In this document: piece after piece, positions 40,080-54,986 of the stretch
Position numbering within the stretch: the first letter of the stretch is position 1
How the letters are laid out: each line of letters starts with the position of its first letter
Origin: Candidatus Bipolaricaulota bacterium
Lineage (GTDB): Bacteria; Bipolaricaulota; Bipolaricaulia; RBG-16-55-9; DRXL01
Reading direction: 5' to 3'
Length of the DNA: 64,000 bases
NCBI GenBank assembly: GCA_025060395.1
Contig: JANXCC010000001.1
Coordinates: 42,538 to 106,537, forward strand
Position numbers and translations under genes: made by a program
Notes under the pieces: model-generated
Database searches by the model: none
The model's input: only the letters and a program-made list of their open reading frames with translations
Told to the model about the DNA's origin: nothing

Positions 40080-41273
40080 ATGGCCTCGATGCCCCCGAGT
40101 CCCCTCATAAGGAAGCGCCTCGCGATCTTAGGTTCGACCGGCTCGGTTGGGTCGCAGACGCTCGCCGTCGTCGAAGCTCTCACTCGAGCCGGGCATGCTT
40201 TTTCGGTGGTAGCCCTGGCAGCAGGCAAGAATTTAGAGCTTCTGGCAGCCCAAGCTCAGCGCTTCCAGCCAAAACTAATCGCCATCGAGCGCGCAAAAGA
40301 CCTGAGCAAGTTGCGACGGCTCGTGGGGACTTTCTGGAGTGGGGAGATCGTCGTCGGCGAGGAGGGACTAATTGCTGCAGCTACTCACCCTGATGCCGAT
40401 CTTATCGTCAACGCCCTGGTCGGCGCCCTGGGGTTGATCCCGACTCTTGAGGCCCTCAAAGCCAAGAAAATCGTCGCACTAGCGAACAAAGAGTCCCTGG
40501 TCATCGGTGGGCATCTCGTGCACGGCGTACAGTCCAAGCGAAGCCTGATCCCCATAGACAGCGAGCACAGCGCGCTCTTCCAGCTCATGCACTCTCTCCA
40601 CCCTAGCGAGATCGAGAGAATTATTCTGACGGCGTCGGGTGGGCCGTTTCGCACTCGTCCGTTAGATTCTTTCGCGCAGATCACGGTAGCAGAAGCCCTG
40701 CAGCACCCCACCTGGCAGATGGGCAAGCGAATCACTATAGATTCAGCGACGCTCGTCAACAAAGCCTTCGAAGTGATCGAAGCCCATTGGCTCTTTGATC
40801 TACCTTATGAAAAAATCTCGGTGCTCATCCATCCGCAGAGCGTTGTGCACGGCTTGGTCGAGCTGACCGATGGCAGCATCCTTGCTCATCTGAGCACGAC
40901 GGATATGAAGCTACCCATTCAGTATGCCCTCACATACCCGGAGCGCGTTCCATCGTCAGTAGCGAGACTAGACTTAGTCAAACAGAAGCTCGAATTTGCG
41001 CCGGTGGGGCGGGAGCGCTATCCGGCATTTTGGCTGGTGTGCGAGGCCGGGCAGCGCGGCGGGACGTTCCCTGCCGTGGCGAACGCTGCCGACGAAGTCT
41101 TCGTACAGAGATTCTTAAAGAACGAGATTCCGTTTGTGGGAATCGCTCGAGGCATAGAGCGAGTGCTTGCGGAGCATGAGGGCGTGCCTACCCCTGCTCT
41201 TGAAGAGATTCTTGAAGCCGATCGGTGGGCGCGCCAGCGAGCTAGCGAATTCCCTCCAAATTCGCTATCATAA
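40080..41273 (+). CDS. dxr: 1-deoxy-D-xylulose-5-phosphate reductoisomerase
   Basis: LGSTGSVG, LANKESLV, PIDSEHSA, HPTWQMGKRITIDSAT. Confidence 0.96.
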   Translation: MASMPPSPLIRKRLAILGSTGSVGSQTLAVVEALTRAGHAFSVVALAAGKNLELLAAQAQRFQPKLIAIERAKDLSKLRRLVGTFWSGEIVVGEEGLIAAATHPDADLIVNALVGALGLIPTLEALKAKKIVALANKESLVIGGHLVHGVQSKRSLIPIDSEHSALFQLMHSLHPSEIERIILTASGGPFRTRPLDSFAQITVAEALQHPTWQMGKRITIDSATLVNKAFEVIEAHWLFDLPYEKISVLIHPQSVVHGLVELTDGSILAHLSTTDMKLPIQYALTYPERVPSSVARLDLVKQKLEFAPVGRERYPAFWLVCEAGQRGGTFPAVANAADEVFVQRFLKNEIPFVGIARGIERVLAEHEGVPTPALEEILEADRWARQRASEFPPNSLS

Positions 41274-41280
41274 TAAAGCT

Positions 41281-42468
41281 ATGGAGAACGCGCGCAAGTG
41301 GTTTGCTGTCTCGGCTGTGTTGTTGCTCCTTTTGGTCTTTACGATCGCCCTTGCAAACTACAATCAAGAGTGGAAGAGGTACCAACGGGCGTATCTGATC
41401 AAAGTCTTCACGGAGAAGGCCTTGGCGGAGAAGGGCTCGCTCTCACTTCTCGATCAGATCGCGATTGCTGTGAGCGCCGAAGCCAATCTTCAGATAAAGA
41501 AGGTCGTCACGGAAGTGGGGCGCAGTGCCGATCTGTGTATGACGTGTCACATCAACGTCGGTGTTCCCGGCTTTGCCCAAGAACCCTTGAAAGATCTCTT
41601 AGAGACCCATAAGAATTTGAAGATCATCGAGCAGTTGCCGTTCGATCAAGTCGGCTGTACCGCATGTCATGGGGGCAACTCTCTAGCGCTGACTTCTGAG
41701 CTCGCTCATCACGAGATGCGCTCGCGCTTTGCCCAGATTTTTGAAGAATCTATCGAGAAGTTGCGCTCGGAACGCTGGGCGGAGCGCCAGCAGGGTATTG
41801 AACGAATTCGCTGGATGACCGCGAACGACTTTGGATTTGTCTTTAACGCCCCGAAGGAGAAACGCGAGGAAGCGATCGCTCGGATTCTCGCGTGGTGGCA
41901 ACTCCACAAAGACACGTTCTTGGTCGAGGGCTTTGGGGAGCGGAGCTCGCCGTTCCGCACAGAAAATCCTCAGGCCAAAGTAATCGAAGCCCGCACCGAC
42001 GTCTCGATCGCTGGGGAACCGTTGCAATTTGTCGGCTCAGCAACATGCGTAGCGTGTCATGGGCATCCCGAGATCAGCGATGCCTACATTCCTGAGTCGA
42101 GCAAGCGTCACGTCGAGCTCTGGTTCCGCCCGGAGTTTATGACCAGCACAAACATTGAAGCATTCAAAGAGCACCCGTTCATAGACGAACAGACCCTCAA
42201 GACCATGGACGTGACGTGCGAGGCGTGTCACGGTCCAGGGAGCGAGTACACGAAGCTGATGCAGAAGGGGATGGCGCTCGAAGCCTTGGGGCAGAGCGTG
42301 GAAGCCGCGGCCTTGATCGCCAAGGGCAAGGAGATCGCGCGCGCCAATGCCCGCACAATCATCAGCGAGCACGACCCGGCAACAGGCTACTCCCGCGTCT
42401 GGGCGATCTTCGAGCGCCTCATCGAAAAGGCATTGGCAGCCCAAGGACAGAACCGCCCTACAGAATAA
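41281..42468 (+). CDS. membrane-anchored tetraheme cytochrome c
   Basis: N-terminal TM helix, QEWKRYQ; CxxCH x4 (CMTCH, CTACH, CVACH, CEACH). Confidence 0.88.
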   Translation: MENARKWFAVSAVLLLLLVFTIALANYNQEWKRYQRAYLIKVFTEKALAEKGSLSLLDQIAIAVSAEANLQIKKVVTEVGRSADLCMTCHINVGVPGFAQEPLKDLLETHKNLKIIEQLPFDQVGCTACHGGNSLALTSELAHHEMRSRFAQIFEESIEKLRSERWAERQQGIERIRWMTANDFGFVFNAPKEKREEAIARILAWWQLHKDTFLVEGFGERSSPFRTENPQAKVIEARTDVSIAGEPLQFVGSATCVACHGHPEISDAYIPESSKRHVELWFRPEFMTSTNIEAFKEHPFIDEQTLKTMDVTCEACHGPGSEYTKLMQKGMALEALGQSVEAAALIAKGKEIARANARTIISEHDPATGYSRVWAIFERLIEKALAAQGQNRPTE

Positions 42469-42484
42469 AAATAAATGCCAGGAT

Positions 42485-42539
42485 TTGACTTTCGCACAGA
42501 TCTTTCTTACAATGAACTCGGAGTATTTTACTCGGAATT
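42485..42539 (+). promoter_or_regulatory. promoter with Rrf2/IscR-like operator
   Basis: TTGACT-17nt-TACAAT followed by GAGTA-TTT-TACTC inverted repeat. Confidence 0.6.
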
Positions 42540-42551
42540 TGAGGTCCTCCT

Positions 42552-42962
42552 ATGAGGGTGACGCGCAAGAGCGATTATGGGCTCCGGGCGCTTTGTACCT
42601 TGGCTCGGCATTATAATCGCGAACCGGTCTCGATTGGGCAGCTCTCGGCAGAGCACAAGATTCCTGAGCCGTTCCTCGAGAAGATCATGCAGGAGTTACG
42701 CGAGCATGGGTTAGTCGAAGCAACCCACGGGCGGGGCGGAGGATATCTGCTGAAGAAGCGTCCGTCACAGATCTCTCTCCGGGAGATCGTGCAAGCTCTC
42801 GATGGACCAATCGCGCTCGTGACGTGTCTCGATCCCAGCTTAAAATGCGCTATCGAAGATGGCTGTCCCACCAGTCCCATCTGGGAGATCGTGAATCATC
42901 AGCTTGAAGAGTATTTGGCATCGCTCACGCTGAGCGATGTCATGAAACTGCAGGGTGAGTGA
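42552..42962 (+). CDS. Rrf2 family transcriptional regulator (IscR-like, 3 Cys)
   Basis: DYGLRAL, FLEKI, GRGGGY, CLDPSLKCAIEDGCP. Confidence 0.92.
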   Translation: MRVTRKSDYGLRALCTLARHYNREPVSIGQLSAEHKIPEPFLEKIMQELREHGLVEATHGRGGGYLLKKRPSQISLREIVQALDGPIALVTCLDPSLKCAIEDGCPTSPIWEIVNHQLEEYLASLTLSDVMKLQGE

Positions 42963-42971
42963 GGCCCCGTC

Positions 42972-44015
42972 ATGGATCTCAGCGAGCGTGCTCTTGAAGT
43001 CTTGCGCCAGATCGAGATCCCTCGGACTCGCCGGCCCTTGGGTGATCTCATCGAAGATCTCTCCATTGATGGAGGGTCTGTCCATGTGCGGATGAGGCTC
43101 GCTCCTGCCTATGCCTCCAAATCTCAGCTTACCTCGTGGGTCGAGCAAGCTCTTAAGGCCATCCCCGGGGTCGAGAGGGTGCAGGTCGAGTTCGTCCAGA
43201 CTCAGCGCCCGCGCCCGAGGGTGCTCACCCAGAAGGTGCGCTTCCCTCAGATCGCACGGATTCTCGTAGTCTTCAGTGGCAAGGGTGGGGTGGGCAAGAG
43301 TACCGTCAGTGTGAATCTGGCGGTAGCGCTTGCGCAGCAGGGAGCGCGAGTGGGGCTCTTTGACGCCGACGTGCATGGCCCCAATATCCCTACTCTTCTA
43401 GGGCTGACCGAGCCCCCTGTGGTGAAGGAGGGCAAACTCCTCCCGATCTTCAAACACGGGGTTCACGCGATCTCGATTGGCTTATTAGTCGGAGGAGGAG
43501 ATCCGCTCATCTGGCGCGGCCCGATGATATCCAAGGCGATTCGTGAACTTTTAGAGAGCACGGCCTGGCCAGAGCTAGACTATCTGATTGTCGACATGCC
43601 TCCAGGAACAGGAGATGCGCAGCTAGGGTTGGCGCAAGACGTGGAGCTGACAGGTGCCATTGCCGTGACGACCCCCCAGGAAGTGGCGCTCTCCGATGTG
43701 CGTCGAGGCATAGGCGCGTTCTTCAAGCTCCATGTGCCCGTCCTTGGGATCATCGAGAATATGGCGTATTATCTCTGTCCCAAGTGCGGGCATCGAGAAT
43801 ATATCTTCGGTCAAGGCGGCGGTGAGGCCGAAGCCCGGCGACAGAAGATTCCGCTCCTCGGGCAGATCCCGCTAGATCCGAAGCTGCGCGAGGGCGGTGA
43901 CGCCGGTATGCCCATCGTGATCGCTCATCCGTCGTCACCTGCGGCGCAAGAGTTCGGCAAGATCGCTGAGAGGCTCATGAGATATTTTGCTCTCAGTCAA
44001 GGAGAGCAGCAATGA
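42972..44015 (+). CDS. apbC: Mrp/ApbC (NBP35) Fe-S cluster carrier ATPase
   Basis: SGKGGVGKST, DADVHGP, WRGPM, DMPPGTGD, ENMAYYLCPKCG. Confidence 0.93.
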   Translation: MDLSERALEVLRQIEIPRTRRPLGDLIEDLSIDGGSVHVRMRLAPAYASKSQLTSWVEQALKAIPGVERVQVEFVQTQRPRPRVLTQKVRFPQIARILVVFSGKGGVGKSTVSVNLAVALAQQGARVGLFDADVHGPNIPTLLGLTEPPVVKEGKLLPIFKHGVHAISIGLLVGGGDPLIWRGPMISKAIRELLESTAWPELDYLIVDMPPGTGDAQLGLAQDVELTGAIAVTTPQEVALSDVRRGIGAFFKLHVPVLGIIENMAYYLCPKCGHREYIFGQGGGEAEARRQKIPLLGQIPLDPKLREGGDAGMPIVIAHPSSPAAQEFGKIAERLMRYFALSQGEQQ

Positions 44016-44341
44016 AGGAGGAGGTGACTCTCTATATGTCTCCTGACGAGATCCGCGAAGTGATTCGGGAGAACGTCTTCGACCCCGAGTTGGGCTACAA
44101 TGTCGTGGATCTGGGGTTGCTTTACGACGTCGAAGTCCGCGGTGACAAAGATGTCCGCCTCGAGATGACGCTGACGACTGTGGGCTGCCCGCTCTACGAG
44201 CAGATCCAAGCCGATTGCGAGCGCGCTATCAAAGAGCACTTCGGCGAAGACGTCAACGTCGAGGTCGACTTCGTCTTCGATCCCCCATGGACCCCAGAGA
44301 TGATGTCAGAAGAGATCCGCGCGGAGATGGGTTTCATCTAA
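44012..44341 (+). CDS. DUF59/SufT-like Fe-S maturation protein
   Basis: DPELGYNVVDLGL, MTLTTVGCP, FDPPWTPEMM. Confidence 0.92.
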   Translation: MKEEVTLYMSPDEIREVIRENVFDPELGYNVVDLGLLYDVEVRGDKDVRLEMTLTTVGCPLYEQIQADCERAIKEHFGEDVNVEVDFVFDPPWTPEMMSEEIRAEMGFI

Positions 44342-44974
44342 ATGGCTCTCTGTGTGTACTGTGCCAAGAAGGCGGGCAAACGCTCATGCCCAGCGCTGGG
44401 AGGCCTCATCTGTCCCAGCTGTTGTGGACACCATCGAGGTATCGCGATCAGTTGTCCCGTTAGTTGCAAGTATCTCAAGACCCACGAGAGCTATCAACGG
44501 GTCCGCCTAGCGGAAGAGTTCCACGCGCTCTGGGTTGAGAAGACGGAACCGCTCTATAAGGCCGGCAAGGAGCGCTCAATCGATCTTCTAGTATGGATAG
44601 AGATGCTGATCTATCAGTTCTATCGTGAGCGCGCGTTGGGCACAGACAGCGAAGTCGTCGAGGCCCTTGAATTTTTGCGACGTCGGTTCAGTTCGTTGAT
44701 AATCGTCGAAGCCGGAGGTACGACCTTAGCCAAGCATCTGTGGGAAGGACTCCAAGAGTTTCTCAAGAGAGAGTCGTTCCCTGCAGAAGCGGTCTCTGAG
44801 GTTCTCGAGAAGAGCCTTGAGATCTTTCGGGCGTATGTAGACCCTGCACAACCACGAAGGTATTTGCACGGGATGTTGGGCCATGTCGAGCGATATTTTA
44901 CGCTCCCTGACGAGTTGAAAGGAAGTCCGTCGCTAATTGCTACCCCGCAGATCGTCACGCCCAAGATGTCTTAG
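44342..44974 (+). CDS. hypothetical protein with Cys-rich N-terminal metal-binding domain
   Basis: CVYC...CPALGGLICPSCCG...CPVSCKYL; start abuts the upstream stop. Confidence 0.7.
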   Translation: MALCVYCAKKAGKRSCPALGGLICPSCCGHHRGIAISCPVSCKYLKTHESYQRVRLAEEFHALWVEKTEPLYKAGKERSIDLLVWIEMLIYQFYRERALGTDSEVVEALEFLRRRFSSLIIVEAGGTTLAKHLWEGLQEFLKRESFPAEAVSEVLEKSLEIFRAYVDPAQPRRYLHGMLGHVERYFTLPDELKGSPSLIATPQIVTPKMS

Positions 44975-44981
44975 CGAACGG

Positions 44982-46025
44982 CTATTTCCAAGGGAGGACC
45001 CACTCCCACTGCGGACCGCGGAAGTACTGCCCGATAATGATTAGCACGATTATGGCTCCAACGACGAGCGTAAAGAGTGCGGTGGTGACGGGGCGATCTC
45101 GCAGCCGGCGTCCCACGGGTTTGCTCTTGTCTTTGCGCCAAAACTCGAGATAGGGCTCAATATACGGAATAGCCATCAAGAAGAGCACAAGGAGCGCAGG
45201 GATGATCACTCCGCCAATTGCTACGCTCGTCAACGGCCCAATATTAGGGGAGATCGCCAGGAGCTCTTGAATCCCCACGAAGTACCACGGGGCTTTTTCA
45301 GGGTTAGGCGTGAACGATGGGGTTGCCGGCTCTTCCAGCGGGGCATCGCGGAAGACAGAGTAGATCCCTAAGCCCGCTATTAAGAAGAACAGCACGGTGA
45401 ACGCCACATAAAGAAAGTATGGGTAGGTGATAATCTCTTCTTCTTCGGCGGGCAGGCGCTTCGCAAACGCTTCTAAAATCTTCTCGATCTTCTCACCGGT
45501 CAGCTCAGGGATCTCTTGAGCTCTGTGGTCCTTGCCGATATAGCTGAAGACGGCATAGAGCACCTCGAAATCGTTAGGATCGCCACCGCCCTCTAAGAGC
45601 GACTCCGTGCGATTACTTAAATCTTTTAGTCTCTTGACAGTGATCTTCTGGGTGGAGGGCAGCTCGCTCAAGGGGATCTTTTCGGCCGCATAGGCGAGGA
45701 CAGTACGCACCAGCTCCGGTTCAATCTGAATCGCTTCAGCAACCTCATAGCCAGGGACTTCGACTTCAATATCTTGATTGACAGAGATCTGGCACGAGAG
45801 TCTCCAGCCCTTGGCAAGTTGCTCTTCCCCTAAGACTTCTTTCTCGTTTTGGTTGGGGTCTCCACCGCCCTTGAGGACGCGCACAGCACACGTTGAGCAT
45901 TGCCCCTGGCCTCCACAGGTTGCCGGGAGCTGATCATCATAGCGCTGCTCTTTCAAGAGCTGCAAGAGATTGGTCCCAGGGCGAACGTCGAGCTCTTTTT
46001 GTCCTAGAATGACGACCTTGGGCAT
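44982..46025 (-). CDS. petD: [2Fe-2S] ferredoxin fused to cytochrome b6f-type subunit IV (cytochrome b C-terminal part)
   Basis: CGGQGQCSTC...LSCQ; then APLEEPA...TPNPEKAPWYFVGIQELL, IPYIE and three TM helices. Confidence 0.85.
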   Translation of the reverse strand: MPKVVILGQKELDVRPGTNLLQLLKEQRYDDQLPATCGGQGQCSTCAVRVLKGGGDPNQNEKEVLGEEQLAKGWRLSCQISVNQDIEVEVPGYEVAEAIQIEPELVRTVLAYAAEKIPLSELPSTQKITVKRLKDLSNRTESLLEGGGDPNDFEVLYAVFSYIGKDHRAQEIPELTGEKIEKILEAFAKRLPAEEEEIITYPYFLYVAFTVLFFLIAGLGIYSVFRDAPLEEPATPSFTPNPEKAPWYFVGIQELLAISPNIGPLTSVAIGGVIIPALLVLFLMAIPYIEPYLEFWRKDKSKPVGRRLRDRPVTTALFTLVVGAIIVLIIIGQYFRGPQWEWVLPWK

Positions 46026-46026
46026 A

Positions 46027-46665
46027 TCAGCTGACCCTCACTCCTACTTCAGCTGCTGCTTGTCGGAGTCTCTCGAGAACGGGCTTACCGCCAGGATAGC
46101 AACCATCGAGCTTGGCCTTTCCTGCTGCCAGCGCTTCAGCGAACTCTTCGCAAGTCGGGTAGCCACAGGCCGAGCAATCGAATCCGGGGAGGACTGCGCG
46201 CAGCTTAGCCGCTGCCGGTGAGAGCGCCGGGGCCTTCGGAGCCTCTTCGACAGCCTTACCTTCGACCTTGGGCCAAGACATCACTAAGGGCTTAAAGAGC
46301 TCAATTGTGAGATCGTTCTTCACCGAGATCTGGCATGAGAGGACCCAGCCCTCCTTGCGCAATTTGTCGCTTAATGGGCCGAGCATCGCCGGGGTGATCT
46401 GCTCAGGCTTAAGCCCGTCTAAGACTTTGACACGACACGTCGCGCACGTACCTTTGCCGCCACACTGAGCAAACAGATCGTACCCCGCTTTCTTGAGGGA
46501 TTGCATCAGATTTTGTTCTAACGGCAAGACCAGCTCATTGCCATCATTTACTATCTTGACTTTCGCTTCACCCTCAACCGTAAGCAGGTTCTTCACTACC
46601 CCTAAGATGACAGCGACGGAGATGGCCATGAGAGCCATCGTCGCTACGGGCACAAGGTAGACCAT
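46027..46665 (-). CDS. membrane-anchored NqrF-like [2Fe-2S] domain + RnfB-like Fe-S domain chimera
   Basis: TM helix; CGGKGTCATC...LSCQ; LPGFDCSACGYPTCEEFA...CYPGG. Confidence 0.85.
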   Translation of the reverse strand: MVYLVPVATMALMAISVAVILGVVKNLLTVEGEAKVKIVNDGNELVLPLEQNLMQSLKKAGYDLFAQCGGKGTCATCRVKVLDGLKPEQITPAMLGPLSDKLRKEGWVLSCQISVKNDLTIELFKPLVMSWPKVEGKAVEEAPKAPALSPAAAKLRAVLPGFDCSACGYPTCEEFAEALAAGKAKLDGCYPGGKPVLERLRQAAAEVGVRVS

Positions 46666-46666
46666 C

Positions 46667-47263
46667 TTAGCCTCCAAAGTCACGAATGTTAATCATCCCT
46701 GAGAACCCTACGAAGCTCATGGCCATTAACCCTGCGATGATGAGGGCGATCCCTGGGCCTTTAAGCCCTTCAGGGATGGGGGCGAATCGCAGGCGTTCTC
46801 TAATAGCAGCCATAAGGATAATCGCGAGCGCCCAGCCAACTCCACCACCAAACCCGTAGGCCACGCTTTGCATGAAGCCCAGATTCCACGTGGCAATCGC
46901 GAAGAGCACCCCGCCTAAGATCGCGCAATTGACCGTGATCAACGGCAAGAAGATCCCCAGCGAGCTATACAGCGCTGGGAGGAAGCGCTTCATGAACATC
47001 TCCACAACCTGAACCAAGAACGCGATCGTGACAATATAGACGATGAGCGACAGATACCCTACGCCCAACGGATCGAGCACGAAGTGCTTAATGAGCCAGT
47101 TAGCAGGCAAGGTCATCGTCAGCACGAAGATGACCGCCATGCCCATCCCTGACGCCGACGCGTACTCCCCTGATACCCCAATAAACGGGCAGATCCCCAG
47201 AAACGTCGTCAGCAGAATATTATTCGTTAAGATCGCACCCAGCACGATGAGGAAGATGTCCAT
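46667..47263 (-). CDS. rnfA: Rnf subunit A (NqrE family)
   Basis: FLGICPF, GMGMAV, FLPLITVNCAILG, MSFVGF. Confidence 0.93.
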   Translation of the reverse strand: MDIFLIVLGAILTNNILLTTFLGICPFIGVSGEYASASGMGMAVIFVLTMTLPANWLIKHFVLDPLGVGYLSLIVYIVTIAFLVQVVEMFMKRFLPALYSSLGIFLPLITVNCAILGGVLFAIATWNLGFMQSVAYGFGGGVGWALAIILMAAIRERLRFAPIPEGLKGPGIALIIAGLMAMSFVGFSGMINIRDFGG

Positions 47264-47266
47264 ATC

Positions 47267-47950
47267 TTAGGAGCCACCTCCGATCTGCCCGCCTGGCGAG
47301 AAGTGCTTGACGATCCCAACGTACAGCCCGACAACCAAGAATGCCCCGGCGGGGATGATCATGATGACCCAGGGGGTCCAGCCGCTGAAAATCTGAATGC
47401 CAAAGAGACTGCCAAAGCCCAGCAGCTCACGGATAATCCCTAGAAGCGTCAACGACATTGTGAATCCCAGGCCGACTCCCAAAGCATCGAGCGCTGAGAG
47501 CCCAGGGCTGTTCTGGCTCGCAAACGCTTCAGCACGCCCTAACACAAAGCAGTTTGTAATAATTAACGGGACATACGGGCCCAAGGCTGCCGACAGCGGC
47601 GGCAGATACGCCCGCAAGAAGATATCGACGATCGTAACCCAGAACGCAATGATGATCATGTACGCTGGGAGTCGCACCTCCGCAGGGATGAGGGTGCGTA
47701 GAGCTGCCACCGTAACACTGGAAGCAACGGTCGCGACCAGCGTTGCCAGCCCCTGCGCCATGCCGTTGATGGCCATGTTCGTAGCGCCCATAGTGGGACA
47801 CATCGCCAAGATCATTCGGAATGTCGGATTATCATCCCAGATGTCACGAACTAACTCTTTCCACCCCTTGGTCTGGGGCAGCCGCTGCGTTAATGGGATC
47901 GCTGGAGCTGATGCTTGTTGCATCGTCGTTGTCTTCACTTCTGCCGCCAT
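47267..47950 (-). CDS. rnfE: Rnf subunit E (NqrD family)
   Basis: LAMCPT, VRLP, PLIITNCFVLGRAEAFA, IRELLGFG, PAGAF. Confidence 0.93.
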   Translation of the reverse strand: MAAEVKTTTMQQASAPAIPLTQRLPQTKGWKELVRDIWDDNPTFRMILAMCPTMGATNMAINGMAQGLATLVATVASSVTVAALRTLIPAEVRLPAYMIIIAFWVTIVDIFLRAYLPPLSAALGPYVPLIITNCFVLGRAEAFASQNSPGLSALDALGVGLGFTMSLTLLGIIRELLGFGSLFGIQIFSGWTPWVIMIIPAGAFLVVGLYVGIVKHFSPGGQIGGGS

Positions 47951-47983
47951 CTGCCTCAACTCCTTCTGGCCGGCTTTGGCCAC

Positions 47984-48016
47984 AAAAAGCATACTATAAT
48001 AGTCTGCTTTTTTCAA
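47984..48016 (-). promoter_or_regulatory. AT-rich palindrome containing a putative internal promoter
   Basis: Minus strand TTGAAA-17nt-TATGCT overlapping an AAAAAGCA.ACTAT.ATAGT.TGCTTTTT inverted repeat. Confidence 0.45.
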
Positions 48017-48022
48017 GGCTCG

Positions 48023-48718
48023 CTACCGGCGCTCTTTTTGCACGATCTTGCGTAGGTTCGCGATCGCCTGGTTCAGCAGATCCCGCACGGTCGTCGACGT
48101 ATACGTCGCCCCGGTGATCGCGTCGAATTGATTAGGAGCCTTAGGGGTGTTGGGATCACGGAACTTGACGAATTCGATCCTAGGATCAGGCTTGATCCCC
48201 TTGAACTGGCTCCAGAACTGTTCTTCAGTCATGCGGAAGCCCAGTCCTGGGGTCTCCCCGATCTCGAAGGTGACGACGTGAGCCCCGATAATCTCAGAGA
48301 GATCAGGCTTGAGGGCGACTTGCATCGCGACCAGCCCCTGAAAGCCGCTCCCCGCAATGCGGATCACATAAGCCATTAGATCCCCACCGATCTTGTCTTT
48401 GTAGACCTTCCAATAGGTGAAGCTGTCCGTCTTGATCTCTTCAATATGCTCTTTGAAATACTGATCGACCTGGGCGGCGGAGAGCTTGGGCAATCCCTCG
48501 GCGGGAAAGAGCTCTTCGGCGGTGTACAGCCCTACAGCCACGAGAATACTCGATCTCAACCGAGCTTTGGCGTTCGCTTCGATGGTCGCTTTGGTCACTT
48601 CGTTGACAAGAGCAAGCAGCCCGCCGGCGATCGCCGCGATCGCCGTCAGCACGATGATCATGCGCCACTCGTGCGGCCCGATCAGCTTCTTCTGCTTCTT
48701 GGGAGCTTGCTGTGCCAT
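48023..48718 (-). CDS. rnfG: Rnf subunit G (FMN-binding)
   Basis: N-terminal TM helix, GSGFQG, ETPGLG, FMNylation motif DAITGATYTS. Confidence 0.92.
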   Translation of the reverse strand: MAQQAPKKQKKLIGPHEWRMIIVLTAIAAIAGGLLALVNEVTKATIEANAKARLRSSILVAVGLYTAEELFPAEGLPKLSAAQVDQYFKEHIEEIKTDSFTYWKVYKDKIGGDLMAYVIRIAGSGFQGLVAMQVALKPDLSEIIGAHVVTFEIGETPGLGFRMTEEQFWSQFKGIKPDPRIEFVKFRDPNTPKAPNQFDAITGATYTSTTVRDLLNQAIANLRKIVQKERR

Positions 48719-48722
48719 GGAA

Positions 48723-49841
48723 TCACCTCTTTTGGATCGCGGGAGCGGAGAAGCTCTTTGGGATTGTGAATCTGTCGAGCAACGGCGTGAACATATTGCC
48801 AATCAAGATAGAGAACGTCACCCATTCGGCGTAGCCGGTCAGCCCACGTCCTAGGACCGTCAGCACACCGAGCATCATCCCGAAGATCCAACGGCCACGG
48901 ACGGTCATAGGGCTGGTGACAGGATCAGTCGCATTGAGAAATGCCGCAAAGAGCAAGCCTCCTGACAACATCGTGTAGAGGCCATCGGGGAATCTAGAGG
49001 GATCGACGAAGTGGAGGAACTGTGAGGTTAGCCCGGCGCTCACGATCATCACAATCGAAACGCGCCAATCGATGACTCGTGCCTGCAGCAGATACAAGCC
49101 GCTCAAGAGCACGAGCATGGCTGAAGTGGCCCCTAGGACGTCTGCGCGTCCAAACCCTGTCACGAGCGTAAACAGATCGGGATTGGCAAGAGCAGGATCC
49201 CTGAAGGCTCCCAGAGGGGTTGCCTTAGCAATAGCATCGAGCCCCTTGACCGACTCCGGCGACCAATGTAAAAAGCCCCCAAGCCCATCGGTTAGGGGAT
49301 TGAAGGGTACATACCAGAAGTTGGTCATTGCTGCGGGAAACGCTAATAACAAGAAGGCTCGCCCGCTGATCGCCGGGTTGAAGATATTGTAGCCTGAGCC
49401 CCCAAAGAGCTCTTTGATCCCAATAGCAAAGGCAATCCCCACCGCAACCATCCAGAAAGGCAGCGTTGGGGGCAACGAGAGCGCGTAGAGCATACACGTC
49501 ACTAGGAGCCCCTCGGTAATCTCATGGCGACGAATAGCACAGAACGTAAGCTCTACAGCAATCCCCACAAGATACGTTACGATGATGATCGCTAGCGAGC
49601 GCCAGCCGTAAAAGTATATGCTGGCCAAGACCAAGGGGATGCACGCCAGGAGCGGTGCGCCCATATAGCGTTGCATCCCGATTGCATCGCGGATATAGGG
49701 AGCTTGACGAGCAGCCTTCTCGCTGCCGCCGAAGATCGCGTCCTTAATGCCCTCGACGATAATAGCCAAACCCTCACGACGGCGTGCTACCAAGTCTTGA
49801 TGAATTCTTTCGAACAGCTCGTAGATTCTGTCCTGAAGCAT
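48723..49841 (-). CDS. rnfD: Rnf subunit D (NqrB family)
   Basis: KELFGGSGYNIFNPA, FMNylation site KATPL, ATDPVTSP. Confidence 0.93.
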   Translation of the reverse strand: MLQDRIYELFERIHQDLVARRREGLAIIVEGIKDAIFGGSEKAARQAPYIRDAIGMQRYMGAPLLACIPLVLASIYFYGWRSLAIIIVTYLVGIAVELTFCAIRRHEITEGLLVTCMLYALSLPPTLPFWMVAVGIAFAIGIKELFGGSGYNIFNPAISGRAFLLLAFPAAMTNFWYVPFNPLTDGLGGFLHWSPESVKGLDAIAKATPLGAFRDPALANPDLFTLVTGFGRADVLGATSAMLVLLSGLYLLQARVIDWRVSIVMIVSAGLTSQFLHFVDPSRFPDGLYTMLSGGLLFAAFLNATDPVTSPMTVRGRWIFGMMLGVLTVLGRGLTGYAEWVTFSILIGNMFTPLLDRFTIPKSFSAPAIQKR

Positions 49842-49854
49842 ATTCTACTCCTCT

Positions 49855-51282
49855 CTAGGCAGCTTCAGCCAGGATCTTACGCTTGCCTTCACGAATCTGC
49901 TCCAACAGCGGGATCTTGCTGGGACAGACATACGCGCACAGGCCACACTCAATACACGCAAAGAGATCCATGTCCTGGGCTTCGCTCAAGAGCCCATGGG
50001 CGGAGTATTCCCCAAGCAACGCCGGCATGAGATTCTGGGGACATACATCGACACAGAAGCCGCACCTGACGCACGGCCTAGGATTACCGTTCAAGCTTGT
50101 GGTTGCGCGTTTGTAGCGAACCCAGGGCACGCTTAGATAAACGCCGGTGAACGAGTCGCGATCAAATCCTGGGCCAGCCACGGGAAAGAGCTCACGCTCG
50201 GCTTCTCGTAACACGATGACCGCGGAAATCTCTTTAGTAATCGGGGTATTGAGATCGTCCTGGGCCTGCCCGCGCAGGACGCTCCCCAGGACAATCCGCC
50301 CATTACACTTCGTATTATTATTCTCCAACAGATTGCTTAAAGGCGTACCCACGCGCACCCGATAGTTCCCTGGCTCTTGAATAGCTGAGCCAGCCACTGA
50401 AACGACGCGCTCGACGAACGGCTTACCCTCGACGACGGCCTCGTAGGCCGCTACACACTGCTGGACGTCTTGCACGACGCAGCCAACGTCGGTCGCGTAG
50501 CCCCGCTGGGGCAGGAGCACCCCCAGGAGGGTGCGAATGAGCACGGCATCGTCATGCTGGGGATATTTGGGGCGCAATTGGTGAATCGTGCACCAATCAT
50601 AGTATTCCAAGCGCTCGATCAGCTCTTCGTAGATCCTGGGTTTGTTATACCCAAGCCCAATATGTACCTGAACGTTACCCAGGGCTTGGCGCAGGATCTT
50701 CATCCCGTTTACGAACTTGTCGAACTCTTCATAGAGCAACTGATCGGTGGCTTCGCAGAACGGCTCGGTCTCGACGGCATTAATGATGAGATAGCGAATC
50801 TTCTCAGGGGTGGTGAACGCCGAGTGATAGGCGGTAGGGAAGCCAGCTTGGCCACCGGCTGTGACCCCTGCTTCGTAGAGAATTCTTCCTAGCTCTTCTG
50901 GGGAGAGCCTCTCGTAGTTAGCGGGAGGGTTGAGCTTGGCCCAATCGTCCTTGCCGTCGGACTCGATGTGGACGCAGAGCGTCTCACCTCCTAGGGGGTG
51001 AGGGCGCTTGTCGATCTTGACGACCCTGCCCGAGATGCTCGCGTGGACAGGGGTTGAAGGCTTCTTGGGATTGGGCTCAGCCCGCCCGATTATCTGCCCT
51101 GTCTTGACGCGGTCGCCCTCCTTGACGACAGGAGCCACTTCGGCGGAAAACCCCTGACGCAAAGGGATGATCACTCTTTGGGGTGTCGGCGCTGTTTTTA
51201 ATCTCTTGCCGCGCGGTGTCCCCTCAAAGAGCCCAAAGTAGTGGCCACCTTTAAAGGTCTTCAGAGATCCCAAGACGGCCAT
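49855..51282 (-). CDS. rnfC: RnfC-like subunit with degenerate FMN/NAD motifs and two [4Fe-4S] clusters
   Basis: FKGG, VKEGDRVKTGQ, PVHASISG, AGFPT, CVRCGFCVDVCP, CIECGLCAYVCPS. Confidence 0.88.
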   Translation of the reverse strand: MAVLGSLKTFKGGHYFGLFEGTPRGKRLKTAPTPQRVIIPLRQGFSAEVAPVVKEGDRVKTGQIIGRAEPNPKKPSTPVHASISGRVVKIDKRPHPLGGETLCVHIESDGKDDWAKLNPPANYERLSPEELGRILYEAGVTAGGQAGFPTAYHSAFTTPEKIRYLIINAVETEPFCEATDQLLYEEFDKFVNGMKILRQALGNVQVHIGLGYNKPRIYEELIERLEYYDWCTIHQLRPKYPQHDDAVLIRTLLGVLLPQRGYATDVGCVVQDVQQCVAAYEAVVEGKPFVERVVSVAGSAIQEPGNYRVRVGTPLSNLLENNNTKCNGRIVLGSVLRGQAQDDLNTPITKEISAVIVLREAERELFPVAGPGFDRDSFTGVYLSVPWVRYKRATTSLNGNPRPCVRCGFCVDVCPQNLMPALLGEYSAHGLLSEAQDMDLFACIECGLCAYVCPSKIPLLEQIREGKRKILAEAA

Positions 51283-51284
51283 TG

Positions 51285-52043
51285 CTAACGTCGCTTCCTT
51301 TCTTCAGTCCAGTAGGGCTTGCTGTACTCGTCCTTGCGGATCCTCCAGAAATGGAACGCTATGAGGAAGATCGTAATCATGGGCAACACAAAGACGTGAA
51401 GCACATACCAACGCAGGAGCGCCGGCTGCCACAGGTCTGTGCCGCCTAGCAGAATCTCCTGGACATACGGCCCCACAACGGGCACCCCAGCGGCAATGTT
51501 GCTAGCGATCTTGGCGGCATAATAGCCCAGCTGATCCCACGGCAGAATATACCCGCTAAAGGCAAAGAGAACCGTAATCACCAGGAGCAGCACCCCGATG
51601 ACCCAATTGAATTCCCTGGGCTTCTGATACGATCCGGTGAAGAAGACCCGCAGCATATGGAAGAAGACGGCAAAGACCATCAGCTCCGCAGCCCACTTGT
51701 GCATATTGCGCATAAATCTGCCCAAAGGAACTACGTTGATGATCTCCCGGACAGAGTCATAAGCGCGCTCGACCGAGGGCACGTAATAGAACATCAAGAA
51801 GCCACCAGTGATAGCCAAGATAAGGAAGAGCCAGGTGCTGATAACCCCCATCCAGACCCAGTTATAACTGAGTCTCGCTGATTCTTTATGAATCTTAGCG
51901 GGGAGAATATGTACGAAGAAGTTGCGGCGATTCATGGCGAGTCGGTCGGCTTCGGTCTGAGGTAATCCCTCACGACGGAAGATCGAGAGCCAGACTCGCG
52001 AGCGTCGGATGCCCTGTAAGATTAGAAGGATCTTGTCGATCAT
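51285..52043 (-). CDS. petB: cytochrome b6-type (split cytochrome b, N-terminal four-helix part)
   Basis: Four heme His ligands (MHKW, FHML, LHVF, FHFW); PREFNW, GYILPWDQ. Confidence 0.93.
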   Translation of the reverse strand: MIDKILLILQGIRRSRVWLSIFRREGLPQTEADRLAMNRRNFFVHILPAKIHKESARLSYNWVWMGVISTWLFLILAITGGFLMFYYVPSVERAYDSVREIINVVPLGRFMRNMHKWAAELMVFAVFFHMLRVFFTGSYQKPREFNWVIGVLLLVITVLFAFSGYILPWDQLGYYAAKIASNIAAGVPVVGPYVQEILLGGTDLWQPALLRWYVLHVFVLPMITIFLIAFHFWRIRKDEYSKPYWTEERKRR

Positions 52044-52603
52044 GAGAACTTGATGTCGCTCCCGTCGGGTGTGGGACCTTCGATCTCTTGGCCTTCAACC
52101 GTGAGATACCAGGTAGAAGGGACAGTCTGAGCGTTGTCGACCTGAAGGCGTCCATCGGGCGTCAGGGATAGCCTGTAGAATGGTAACGGCTTAGGAGCCG
52201 GTCCCCCGAGCACCCGCCCATCACGCGCAAAGACGCTCCCATGACAAGGACAGACAGCGTGCACCACAGGATATTCTCGGGTTGGTGGCCCAAACGGCTT
52301 ATAGCTGCACCCCAGATGGGTGCAAGTCATAGAGAGTGCTTGGAAGCCTAAGGGTGTTCGGAATATCAGGACCCTCTTGGCTTCGATAGGACGCATCTCC
52401 CCGACTTGATAATCACTGGGACGTCCCACTATGAAAGTTGTTGTGGGCTCGTAGGTAAGTCGTGGTTTGAGATAGAAGGGGATACCTTGGGCTATGCCTC
52501 CAAGGGCCAGAGCGAGCGATCCCCACCCTAGCCATCCTAAGAAGCGTCGCCGCGTCAACGACCCTATGGGAAGCTCGATAGTCGAATCTCTCTCGGCTTC
52601 CAT
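52040..52603 (-). CDS. petC: Rieske [2Fe-2S] protein with Tat signal-anchor
   Basis: LTRRRFL, CTHLGC, CPCHGS, GPAPKPL. Confidence 0.93.
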   Translation of the reverse strand: MEAERDSTIELPIGSLTRRRFLGWLGWGSLALALGGIAQGIPFYLKPRLTYEPTTTFIVGRPSDYQVGEMRPIEAKRVLIFRTPLGFQALSMTCTHLGCSYKPFGPPTREYPVVHAVCPCHGSVFARDGRVLGGPAPKPLPFYRLSLTPDGRLQVDNAQTVPSTWYLTVEGQEIEGPTPDGSDIKFS

Positions 52604-52650
52604 CAAGCCACCCTTCTCCTTCACATTGCAGCCGCACTGTCGTGTGCCGC

Positions 52651-52679: not shown

Positions 52680-52755
52680 ACGGTGAGCTTGAGGCATAGC
52701 TTGATGACATGCGTCATGTGAGGGTCCTCCTCCTTTTTGCTATGATATCATATTG

Positions 52756-53350
52756 ATGTTTACCGGGATCATCATCGACACGGGCGAGGTCGTGTATGCC
52801 AGCTCGCATCGCCTGACCGTGAGCACCCCTAGGCTCTTTAAGGAGCTAGAGATCGGACGGAGTATCGCGGTCAACGGCGTATGCTTGACTATTATTGAGC
52901 TTACCCCAGCGTCAGAGAGCTTTTCAGCGGAGCTCAGCCCCGAGACGCTTGCGCGCACGAACTTGGGGTTGCTGCGGCGCGGCGATCTCGTCAATTTGGA
53001 ACTGCCCTTGAGGCTTTCGGATCGTCTCGATGGGCACTTCGTGCTGGGGCACGTCGACACTGTTGGGGAGGTCGTCTCGATCTCCCGGAAAGAGAAGGGC
53101 GCGGTCTTCCGTTTTCGGGTCGACGCAAGATACTCGCCCTACCTCATCGAGAAAGGCTCGATCGCCCTCGATGGGATCAGCTTGACGATCTTTAATATTC
53201 GCAACGGGGAGTTCGACGTCGCGGTCATTCCCCACACGCTAGAGCAGACGAATCTACGCACGCGGCGTCCGGGGGATAAGATCAACGTTGAGTTCGATGT
53301 GCTGGGGAAATACATAGAGAAATTGTTCCAAGACAAAGGAGGCCAGCGAG

Positions 53351-53364
<14 letters not shown>
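52756..53364 (+). CDS. ribE: riboflavin synthase (alpha chain)
   Basis: [37 protein letters not shown]. Confidence 0.96.
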
Positions 53365-54566
<1,202 letters not shown>

Positions 54567-54577
<11 letters not shown>

Positions 54578-54986
54578 GATCGCGATCGTCGTCAGTCAGT
54601 TTAATAAAGAGATCACCCAAGAGCTGCTCAAGGCTGCGCAAGAAGAGCTTCAGCGAGCTGGGGTCGCGGAGATTGATGTCTTTTGGGTGCCGGGGGCGTT
54701 TGAGTTGCCCGCAACGGTGAAGCGTTTAGCTCAAGTGGGGCGCTATGATGGGATTCTGCCGCTGGGGTGCGTGATCAAGGGGGAGACCGCGCACTTTGAG
54801 CATATCGCTCGGGCAGTCGCTGATGGACTCATGCGCGTGACGCTCGAATGTGATACTCCCATAGTCTTTGGGGTGCTGACGCCGTACACCGAAGAGCAGG
54901 CGTGGGCGCGGATCTACAAAGGCGCTGAAGTCGCCAAGAGCCTAATAGAACTGATTCATCTTCGGCGGAAGCTGAGATCTGCCTAG
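54567..54986 (+). CDS. ribH: 6,7-dimethyl-8-ribityllumazine synthase
   Basis: [24 protein letters not shown]. Confidence 0.95.

Follow-up and report, generated by a model that had tools for sequence, protein, structure and literature searches.

RnfC is usually taken to be the NAD+ site of the Rnf complex, and NqrA its cofactor-free descendant. According to the accessible sections of two papers, NqrA carries no cofactors (PMC12174285, PMC9588780), and the reaction of the NQR complex runs from NADH to quinone (PMC12174285). Losses of the NAD, flavin mononucleotide (FMN) and iron-sulfur (Fe-S) sites on the way to NqrA were postulated by Reyes-Prieto et al. (2014), and no form keeping the Fe-S clusters is described in the accessible part of that work (PMC4014512). 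Takami et al. (2012) reported a cluster of Candidatus Acetothermum autotrophicum (OP4C155-0162) formed by rnfCDGEAB plus Rieske and cytochrome b genes, which the available text reads as an ordinary Rnf (PMC3267732), and in the corresponding portions of Colman et al. (2022) the Rnf and RnfC of Acetothermia are treated as NADH-linked (PMC9586279). The locus analyzed in this work is a cluster of the same kind as OP4C155-0162 and from the same phylum. It lies in a 64,000-nucleotide stretch of contig JANXCC010000001.1 (hereafter the window) of a Candidatus Bipolaricaulota bacterium, a 1.70-Mb metagenome-assembled genome that is 87.9% complete and whose relatives are labelled Bipolaricaulota, Acetothermia or Fraserbacteria. 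Its RnfC-like protein, encoded at 49855-51282 on the minus strand, appears to fall in a deep and undescribed branch of the family of RnfC and NqrA in which the canonical NuoF-type FMN/NADH signature was lost and both [4Fe-4S] clusters were kept.

The open reading frame (ORF) starts with ATG, has no internal stop and encodes 475 amino acids. By its sequence it is a member of the RnfC family, with 343.9 bits in TIGR01945 (rnfC; cut-off 245.95), the match being split in two stretches, and with the Pfam domains RnfC_N, Complex1_51K, SLBB/NQRA_SLBB and 4Fe-4S dicluster. The protein is thus arranged as an RnfC_N barrel, a NuoF-like domain, an SLBB domain, a linker of about 38 residues of the NqrA type (residues 362-399, 50086..50199, minus strand) and a ferredoxin domain with two [4Fe-4S] motifs. 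Its AlphaFold2 (AF2) model had a pLDDT of 95.1 and a pTM of 0.94, and Foldseek searches with this model gave TM scores of 0.81-0.83 to RnfC chains and of 0.75 to NqrA. A weak NuoF match was also obtained (TIGR01959, 39.8 bits), and none at E <= 1e-8 in five other divergent members tested. A sequence-only reading of the window had described this protein as an RnfC with eroded FMN/NAD-binding motifs, an intact frame and intact Fe-S motifs, perhaps acting as an Fe-S relay in a rewired complex. The frame is indeed open, and both CxxCxxCxxxCP motifs (residues 404-415 and 443-454, 49921..50073, minus strand) are present, with eight Cys, all invariant.

The motif substitutions listed in that reading were each seen in HMMER alignments to three solved RnfC chains (9eri_C, 7zc6_C and 8ahx_C). 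Residues 139-150 are GVTAGGQAGFPT against GIVG[LM]GGA.FPT in the solved chains, residues 168-175 are NAVETEPF against NGAECEPY, residues 240-245 are YPQHDD against YPQGAE or YPMGSA, residues 270-275 are VQDVQQ (50458..50475, minus strand) against V.NV.T, and residues 333-338 are GSVLRG against GGPMMG. An unbiased test used 86 canonical RnfC representatives, in which 51 alignment columns show conservation of 95% or more. The window protein keeps 41 of them and changes ten: G46S, G142A, G145Q, K153H, C172T, D179T, G243H, N272D, T275Q and G334S. Nine of the changes fall among the 30 columns of residues 139-350 and one among the six of the N-terminal domain, while none of the 15 columns of the Fe-S domain is affected (pocket versus Fe-S columns, Fisher's exact test, p = 0.0195). 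The changes are therefore not random, and the observation is real. G142, G145, K153, N272 and G334 are invariant in all 86 canonical representatives, and T275 is found in 82 of them. As a consequence, the canonical FMN/NADH signature is not preserved, as had been claimed: the window protein does not match the loop G..G.GGA.FPT..K (G142A, G145Q, K153H) or the pocket motifs V.NV.T and GG...G (N272D, T275Q, G334S).

Some of the changes are more modest than first described, and others had been missed. In the Gly-rich loop (GVTAGGQAGFPTAYH, residues 139-153, 50824..50868, minus strand) the substitutions stand, but F148, P149 and T150 are kept, so the F of GFPT is still there. The motif NAVETEPF has lost a conserved Cys to Thr; however, since it keeps N, E, E and P, and the Y/F position also varies in canonical RnfC, it can be considered barely eroded. 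Two of the changed canonical columns, K153H and D179T, were absent from the earlier list. The change G243H is restricted to the window protein and P0001, which is 97% identical, that is, to two of 121 sequences in a clade alignment made of the window protein and P0001-P0120 (with an uncounted reference row for RsxC of E. coli); the others mostly have YPQG[DE]D. The Q at the fifth position of VQDVQQ is common to the clade and to the aligned NqrA of V. cholerae. The window protein retains F148, N168, E171, E173, Y240 and P241, and most of these residues are at least 90% conserved in an alignment of 58 Bipolaricaulota sequences.

The same changes extend far beyond this genome. A search of 1.84 billion proteins was used to obtain the 150 best representatives at 50% identity, of which 86 were canonical, 59 divergent and five partial or odd. 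All the motifs are kept in 86/86 canonical representatives and GGA in 0/59 divergent ones, while both Cys motifs are found in 59/59 divergent and 85-86/86 canonical sequences. The sequence-only reading would have been refuted if its substitutions were common in ordinary Rnf; none of the 86 canonical representatives carries any of them. The 120 nearest homologues, down to 35% identity, all lack the canonical GGA and few have V.NV.T intact; the first Cys motif is present in all 120 and the full second one in all but P0086. In a tree of 104 rows, 84 divergent rows are split off by one branch with SH-aLRT support of 100, and the other side consists of 19 canonical rows and P0197. The Bipolaricaulota groups are placed near the base of the divergent side, and the remaining rows form a subclade of 66 (SH-aLRT 100), in what was a quick IQ-TREE search under LG+G4 with compositional heterogeneity and one long-branch pair flagged. 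P0197, nested among canonical RnfCs, has also lost the Gly loop and V.NV.T (GIVGGREDDLPA, VADVSM), apparently in an independent event.

Selection on the gene was evaluated with 12 orthologues (75-88% identity). The ratio of nonsynonymous to synonymous rates (dN/dS) was 0.05-0.14 overall, 0.03-0.08 in the NuoF-like domain and 0.03-0.12 in the Fe-S domain (pairs with estimable dS), these ratios being rough because dS is saturated. The NuoF-like pocket domain, the linker and the Fe-S domain turned out to be the most constrained parts of the protein. In 58 Bipolaricaulota-type sequences, a count by eye showed that roughly 20 of the 30 columns invariant in the canonical pocket region remain conserved at 90% or more, and the replacements are conserved too (Q/K/R at 145, T at 172, D at 272). 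A decaying gene was ruled out by the dN/dS values and by the intact frames in the 12 orthologues. Local decay is thus rejected as the cause of the motif losses, which, on the tree and alignments described above, define a strongly supported clade. Given that the changes are clade-wide and the domain is constrained, the term "eroded" has to be abandoned, and the pocket is better described as remodelled, clade-wide and conserved.

With respect to the two described families, profile scores and the shared linker suggest that the clade lies between RnfC and NqrA. Five canonical RnfCs gave 523-572 bits with TIGR01945, in one stretch, and 50-93 bits with the NqrA model NF003761, only to profile position ~312. 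Five divergent members gave 231-322 bits in two stretches with the former and 110-166 bits over the full length of the latter. The window protein matched NF003761 over residues 21-473, with 133.9 bits versus a cut-off of 450, and TIGR01936 with 109.4 bits versus 321.05. NqrA of V. cholerae (7xk3_A) aligns with it in one stretch (53-470), through the linker of about 38 residues, whereas the three solved RnfC chains align in two stretches that break at the linker, as do the representatives classed as canonical in every row except P0261. The affinity to NqrA is drawn from profile scores and this one pairwise alignment.

The window protein shares with canonical RnfC/RsxC (A. woodii 9ERI_C, C. tetanomorphum 7ZC6_C, A. 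vinelandii 8AHX_C) the domain order, the fold, 27-31% identity, the two [4Fe-4S] motifs, a score above the TIGR01945 cut-off and a gene position directly upstream of rnfD. It differs from them in the Gly-rich loop, K153, C172, D179, N272, T275 and G334, in the extra linker, and in an operon that has an "RnfB" without polyferredoxin and includes Rieske and cytochrome b genes. With NqrA (V. cholerae 7XK3_A) it has in common the absence of the canonical FMN/NADH signature, the linker and the full-length profile match, and distant members of its clade share operons with NqrF-type genes. Unlike NqrA, which has no Fe-S clusters, it keeps eight Cys, and its scores remain far below the NqrA cut-offs.

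The gene is the third of a tightly packed operon of nine genes, all on the minus strand. The first (52040..52624) encodes a Rieske 2Fe-2S protein, above the cut-off in PF00355, with CTHLGC and CPCHGS in the translation, which we take to be the Rieske motifs. The second (51285..52043) encodes a cytochrome b6-type N-terminal half of cytochrome b, with 151.5 bits in PF00033, above the cut-off, and sub-cut-off matches to ExtP (258 bits) and cytochrome b6 (202 bits). After the RnfC-like gene come an RnfD/NqrB-like gene (48723..49841; rnfD 249.6 bits, nqrB 218.6 bits), whose product retains, in AKATPL, the Thr that lines up with the Thr region bearing FMN, and an RnfG-like gene for an FMN_bind protein (48023..48802) that retains the TGAT motif and whose true start is likely the ATG at 48718. 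The RnfE-like (47267..48016) and RnfA-like (46667..47263) genes were assigned by Pfam and profile searches. In the position of RnfB (46027..46683) there is a hybrid protein formed by a transmembrane helix, an NqrF-like 2Fe-2S ferredoxin domain and an RnfB-type FeS domain (PF04060). It matches positions 7-121 of the 405 of the nqrF profile (68 bits), and its eight Cys ligands do not vary across 18 sequences. Its Pfam scan gave Fer2 and PF04060 only, with no polyferredoxin, flavin adenine dinucleotide (FAD) or NAD domain found. The last gene (44982..46025) encodes a 2Fe-2S ferredoxin domain joined by a linker of about 100 residues to a membrane domain similar to subunit IV or the C-terminal part of cytochrome b. 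This domain contains APWY, presumably the subunit IV motif of that name, and has weak matches to ExtQ (47.7 bits) and cytb6_f_IV (17.6 bits). There are 85 homologues of this fusion in all, of which ~53 are full-length clusters, and proteins bearing PF00032 occur among the distant ones.

The operon therefore encodes the components of a Rieske/cytochrome b complex, i.e. the Rieske protein, the N-terminal half of cytochrome b and a half resembling subunit IV. Together with the two extra 2Fe-2S domains, and with all nine proteins free of Pfam domains for NAD(P)H or FAD binding, this agrees with the rewired complex that the sequence-only reading had proposed. In comparison with a Na+-NQR operon, the FAD/NADH domain is missing, and only the transmembrane plus 2Fe-2S part of the hybrid resembles NqrF. 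Rieske/cytochrome b complexes of anammox bacteria, as we understand them, likewise join extra cytoplasmic redox subunits, but in their case a subunit of FAD/NAD(P)H type and haem c proteins are present and an Rnf core is absent.

The association with Rieske/cytochrome b genes was found, to the contig ends, in 20 of 21 Bipolaricaulota genome loci. The nine-gene order is present, again to contig ends, in L001-L010, L012 and L013, and in L015 through RnfE, where the contig finishes. Seven loci (L014, L016-L021) have a shorter, six-gene form that lacks RnfG, RnfE and RnfA and consists of Rieske, cytochrome b, RnfC, RnfD, RnfB-like and ferredoxin-subunit IV genes; the last of these is split into two ORFs in L017 and L018. 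At L011 (8001-13255), RnfC-D-G-E-A-B-like genes are present and Rieske, cytochrome b and subunit IV are absent from the locus. In the RnfC of L011, also seen as P0020/P0021, the Gly-rich loop is missing owing to a deletion of eight residues.

A metagenome scan with distant members of the clade gave 80 loci, 48 with the canonical Gly loop and 32 without it. The former resemble ordinary rnf operons, and 25 of the 48 have an RsxB-type gene on the same strand. Among the latter, an RsxB-type match downstream of the B position was found in three (L041, L047 and L060), that of L041 being NuoF-like by Pfam. The 29 closest divergent loci (L033-L061) have the order C-D-G-E-A followed by a sixth gene, which was of NqrF type (Fer2, FAD_binding_6 and NAD_binding_1) in the six loci checked (L041, L045, L046, L054, L055 and L061), so that in most of the clade the NAD(H) site would be on another subunit and the C subunit would be an Fe-S protein. 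The sixth gene is a stub with a transmembrane helix and Fer2 in L047 and L060. In L041, the NqrF-type gene is followed by NuoE-like (Fer2 plus thioredoxin-like 2Fe-2S) and NuoF-like genes. These eight loci (L041, L045, L046, L054, L055, L061, L047 and L060) can be described as NQR-like operons with an "NqrA" that retains two 4Fe-4S motifs. The Rieske/cytochrome b type is represented among the metagenome loci by L048 and L051, and in part by L056.

A survey of 151 genomes of the phylum with TIGR01945 (E <= 1e-30; tallies counted from the table) showed split-match RnfC of the window type in 27, from families f1, f2, f3, f4, f5 and f11, all but f11 belonging to the order of the window genome. Canonical full-length RnfC (458-562 bits) was found in 40 genomes of other families and an intermediate in five; none of the 27 split-match genomes had a canonical-scoring RnfC in this search. 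Intermediates and variants among G067, G139, G101, G073, G027, G014 and G055 gave full-length matches of 315-360 bits, and G067 and G139 have a canonical RnfC and a second, weak full-length match (126-131 bits).

Because the signature is lost, the Fe-S motifs are kept and a presumably quinol-oxidising cytochrome b complex is encoded in the operon, the "Rnf" of these bacteria probably differs from the textbook ferredoxin:NAD+ pump. The reading we favor, with confidence that is middling, is that the RnfC-like protein serves as an Fe-S relay without flavin, within an Rnf-type complex that is linked to quinone and independent of NAD. It would occupy the C/A position of an Rnf/Nqr-type membrane complex, most likely without the catalytic FMN and without reducing NAD+, and its two clusters would connect the RnfD flavins with another Fe-S partner for electron transfer. 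A tethered 2Fe-2S domain, either that of the "RnfB" hybrid or, as the sequence-only reading had suggested, that on subunit IV, would be the candidate partner. The ion-translocating RnfDGEA core could in this way be tied to the Rieske/cytochrome b module and hence to the menaquinone pool, the most coherent overall reaction being ferredoxin:menaquinone or its reverse. In this scheme, the lack of flavin, the direction in which electrons move, the identity of the partner and the connection to quinone are inferred. A complex prediction with the RnfC-like protein, the soluble RnfB-like part and the ferredoxin domain of subunit IV gave a score of 0.00, which, having been run without controls, speaks neither for nor against binding.

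Other genes of the host bear on this proposal. The FMN-site Thr regions are kept in RnfD and RnfG, and ApbE is encoded in the genome. A MenA-type prenyltransferase (121.9 bits, cut-off 102.15), a haem O synthase and a second cytochrome b locus were identified, which makes a quinone pool plausible. PF02621, of the futalosine pathway, was not found, an absence that is not thereby established in a genome of this completeness. A second cytochrome b gene is located elsewhere in the genome (G000 contig C4:23255-23800; L113) and gave 161.5 bits in PF00033, so the Rieske/cytochrome b linked to Rnf is probably an extra copy. A precedent for an Rnf not coupled to NAD+ is that of Methanosarcina acetivorans, where, according to the part of the review available, electrons from ferredoxin are expected to reach methanophenazine or extracellular acceptors via a multihaem cytochrome (PMC12174285). 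There too, with MmcA, electrons are expected to go to a membrane carrier or outside the cell through an added haem protein and not to NAD+; the added module is a c-type cytochrome, unlike the Rieske/cytochrome b of the window operon.

Several observations weigh against a pocket that has been emptied and are equally what would be expected if it was remodelled and still occupied. The pocket domain is strongly constrained (dN/dS 0.03-0.08 against the 12 close orthologues), and with some two thirds of the canonical pocket invariants (about 20 of 30) at least 90% conserved in the 58 Bipolaricaulota sequences it may still hold something. The replacements at positions 145, 172 and 272 are themselves conserved, and, of the six kept residues mentioned above (F148, N168, E171, E173, Y240 and P241), F148, N168, E173 and Y240 occupy positions that are degenerate in the NqrF-linked subclade, so the Bipolaricaulota pocket looks used and non-vestigial. 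By motif equivalence, we assume that F148 and E173 correspond to F70 and E97 of Nqo1. Those two Nqo1 residues are named as NADH- or FMN-site residues in the accessible parts of two papers (PMC7434922, PMC10482914). The weak NuoF match of the window protein, for which no counterpart was obtained in the five other divergent members, points in the same direction. So does the neighborhood: the riboflavin synthesis genes ribE, ribBA and ribH (52753..54986, plus strand) are divergent from the operon, and ribE/ribBA adjoin it in 14 of 21 related loci and ribH in 11, including loci of the short operon type. In the long type these genes lie upstream and are divergent; in the short type they are downstream, on the operon's strand. 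Finally, published structures place FMN centrally, with the C1 cluster on one side and the cleft on the other (PMC9588780, in the sections available), so an empty pocket may interrupt electron transfer and leave C1 too far from an external partner. A flavin or nucleotide could then be bound in a non-canonical manner, e.g. a flavin without the usual phosphate-binding loop, with NAD(P)H or another compound as substrate. We consider this a serious rival to the relay, though the less likely of the two, given that G142, G145, K153 and N272 (86/86 in canonical RnfC) and T275 (82/86) are all changed, that the same losses are found in relatives with a plainly degenerate pocket and an NADH site on NqrF-type subunits, and that NqrA shows that the fold is viable without a cofactor.

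The alternatives at both extremes, an ordinary RnfC and a structural relic, seem very improbable to us. That the complex is a normal ferredoxin:NAD+ oxidoreductase in which the substitutions are tolerated is what was assumed for Acetothermia in the accessible parts of Takami et al. (2012; PMC3267732) and Colman et al. (2022; PMC9586279), and the TIGR01945 cut-off is passed; but none of the changes occurs in the 86 canonical representatives, the "RnfB" lacks the ferredoxin-binding polyferredoxin, and Rieske/cytochrome b genes accompany the operon in 20 of 21 genome loci. Besides, other families of the same phylum keep a canonical RnfC (458-562 bits), so this is not simply a fast-evolving lineage. 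A subunit that only stabilises RnfD, as NqrA does, with its Fe-S clusters as a dead end, would fit the affinity to NqrA in profile score and linker. It is at odds with the eight Cys being invariant in 59/59 divergent representatives and with the dN/dS of the Fe-S domain (0.03-0.12), as a relic would be expected to vary in the way reported for NqrA in the accessible part of Reyes-Prieto et al. (2014; PMC4014512).

Coupling to NAD(H) could also take place in trans, through a separate protein docking on the complex. The candidate is P0354, a stand-alone flavin module of RnfC/NuoF type of 361 residues (G000 contig C66:68187-69269, minus strand; L023:1129-2214). With GLIGAGGAGFPTYFK (GAGGAGFPT..K), NAEEGEPG, YGMGEE, VNNVET and GGPLMG it carries the fully canonical FMN/NADH signature, and it combines a Complex1_51K match of 106 bits with a C-terminal RnfC_N barrel, without any Cys or Fe-S domain. 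It was found in 30 of the 151 genomes of the phylum, namely in 24 of the 27 with divergent RnfC and in none of the 40 with canonical RnfC. This co-occurrence is confounded by phylogeny, since it is largely confined to one order, and six genomes have P0354 and no divergent RnfC. The gene is far from the operon, flanked by genes for two single-pass membrane proteins (175 and 185 residues), assigned to no family, that are conserved in 4-5 of 7 related genomes, and similar-looking clusters have been reported in Archaea and Actinomycetota. The NuoF-like domain in cis would, in addition, already fill the docking place. All this makes a docked P0354 quite improbable, if slightly less so than an ordinary RnfC or a relic.

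Returning to the flavin-less relay, it can be taken a step further, toward a proposal that we put forward as speculation and judge unlikely to hold in full. The clade would be a surviving intermediate between RnfC and NqrA, in which the flavin site was lost first and the Fe-S clusters were kept. In Bipolaricaulota it would join an Rnf-type ion pump to a Rieske/cytochrome b complex, giving an oxidoreductase of nine subunits that works as ferredoxin:menaquinone or, in reverse, as quinol:ferredoxin, without an NAD(H) site. Its conserved, remodelled pocket would not be empty but would contain a flavin lacking the phosphate, e.g. riboflavin, or would dock a tethered 2Fe-2S domain.

The clade represents a large and conserved third state beside RnfC and NqrA. 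The Rnf-to-Nqr transition was postulated in 2014 without a concrete intermediate, as far as the accessible part of that paper goes (PMC4014512), and this clade would provide one. No description of such a divergent RnfC clade was found in the literature searched, which covered neither subscription journals nor supplements. For the cluster OP4C155-0162, treated as a ferredoxin:NAD+ Rnf, the available text of Takami et al. (2012) makes no mention of motifs in RnfC, of a hybrid RnfB or of a fusion between ferredoxin and subunit IV (PMC3267732). Our literature search found no work pairing Rieske/cytochrome b with Rnf, and a 2025 review on RNF and NQR has no mention of Rieske, cytochrome b, anammox or Planctomycetes. 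An Rnf-type pump joined to Rieske/cytochrome b without an NAD(H) site is a candidate for coupling low-potential Fe-S carriers to the quinone pool. Published energy schemes for putative acetogens assume, in the parts available, a ferredoxin:NAD+ Rnf (PMC3267732, PMC9586279) and may rest on the wrong enzyme; if the ferredoxin:menaquinone reading is true, the "Rnf" in models of Acetothermia acetogenesis is a different one.

Downstream of the operon, on the opposite strand (41167-44974, plus), there are genes for a 433-residue protein with CXXCH motifs and weak multihaem matches, an Rrf2 regulator, an Fe-S carrier ATPase of the Mrp/NUBPL type and a Cys-rich protein of 210 residues without an assigned family. 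The order of these genes is kept in 5-7 close relatives.

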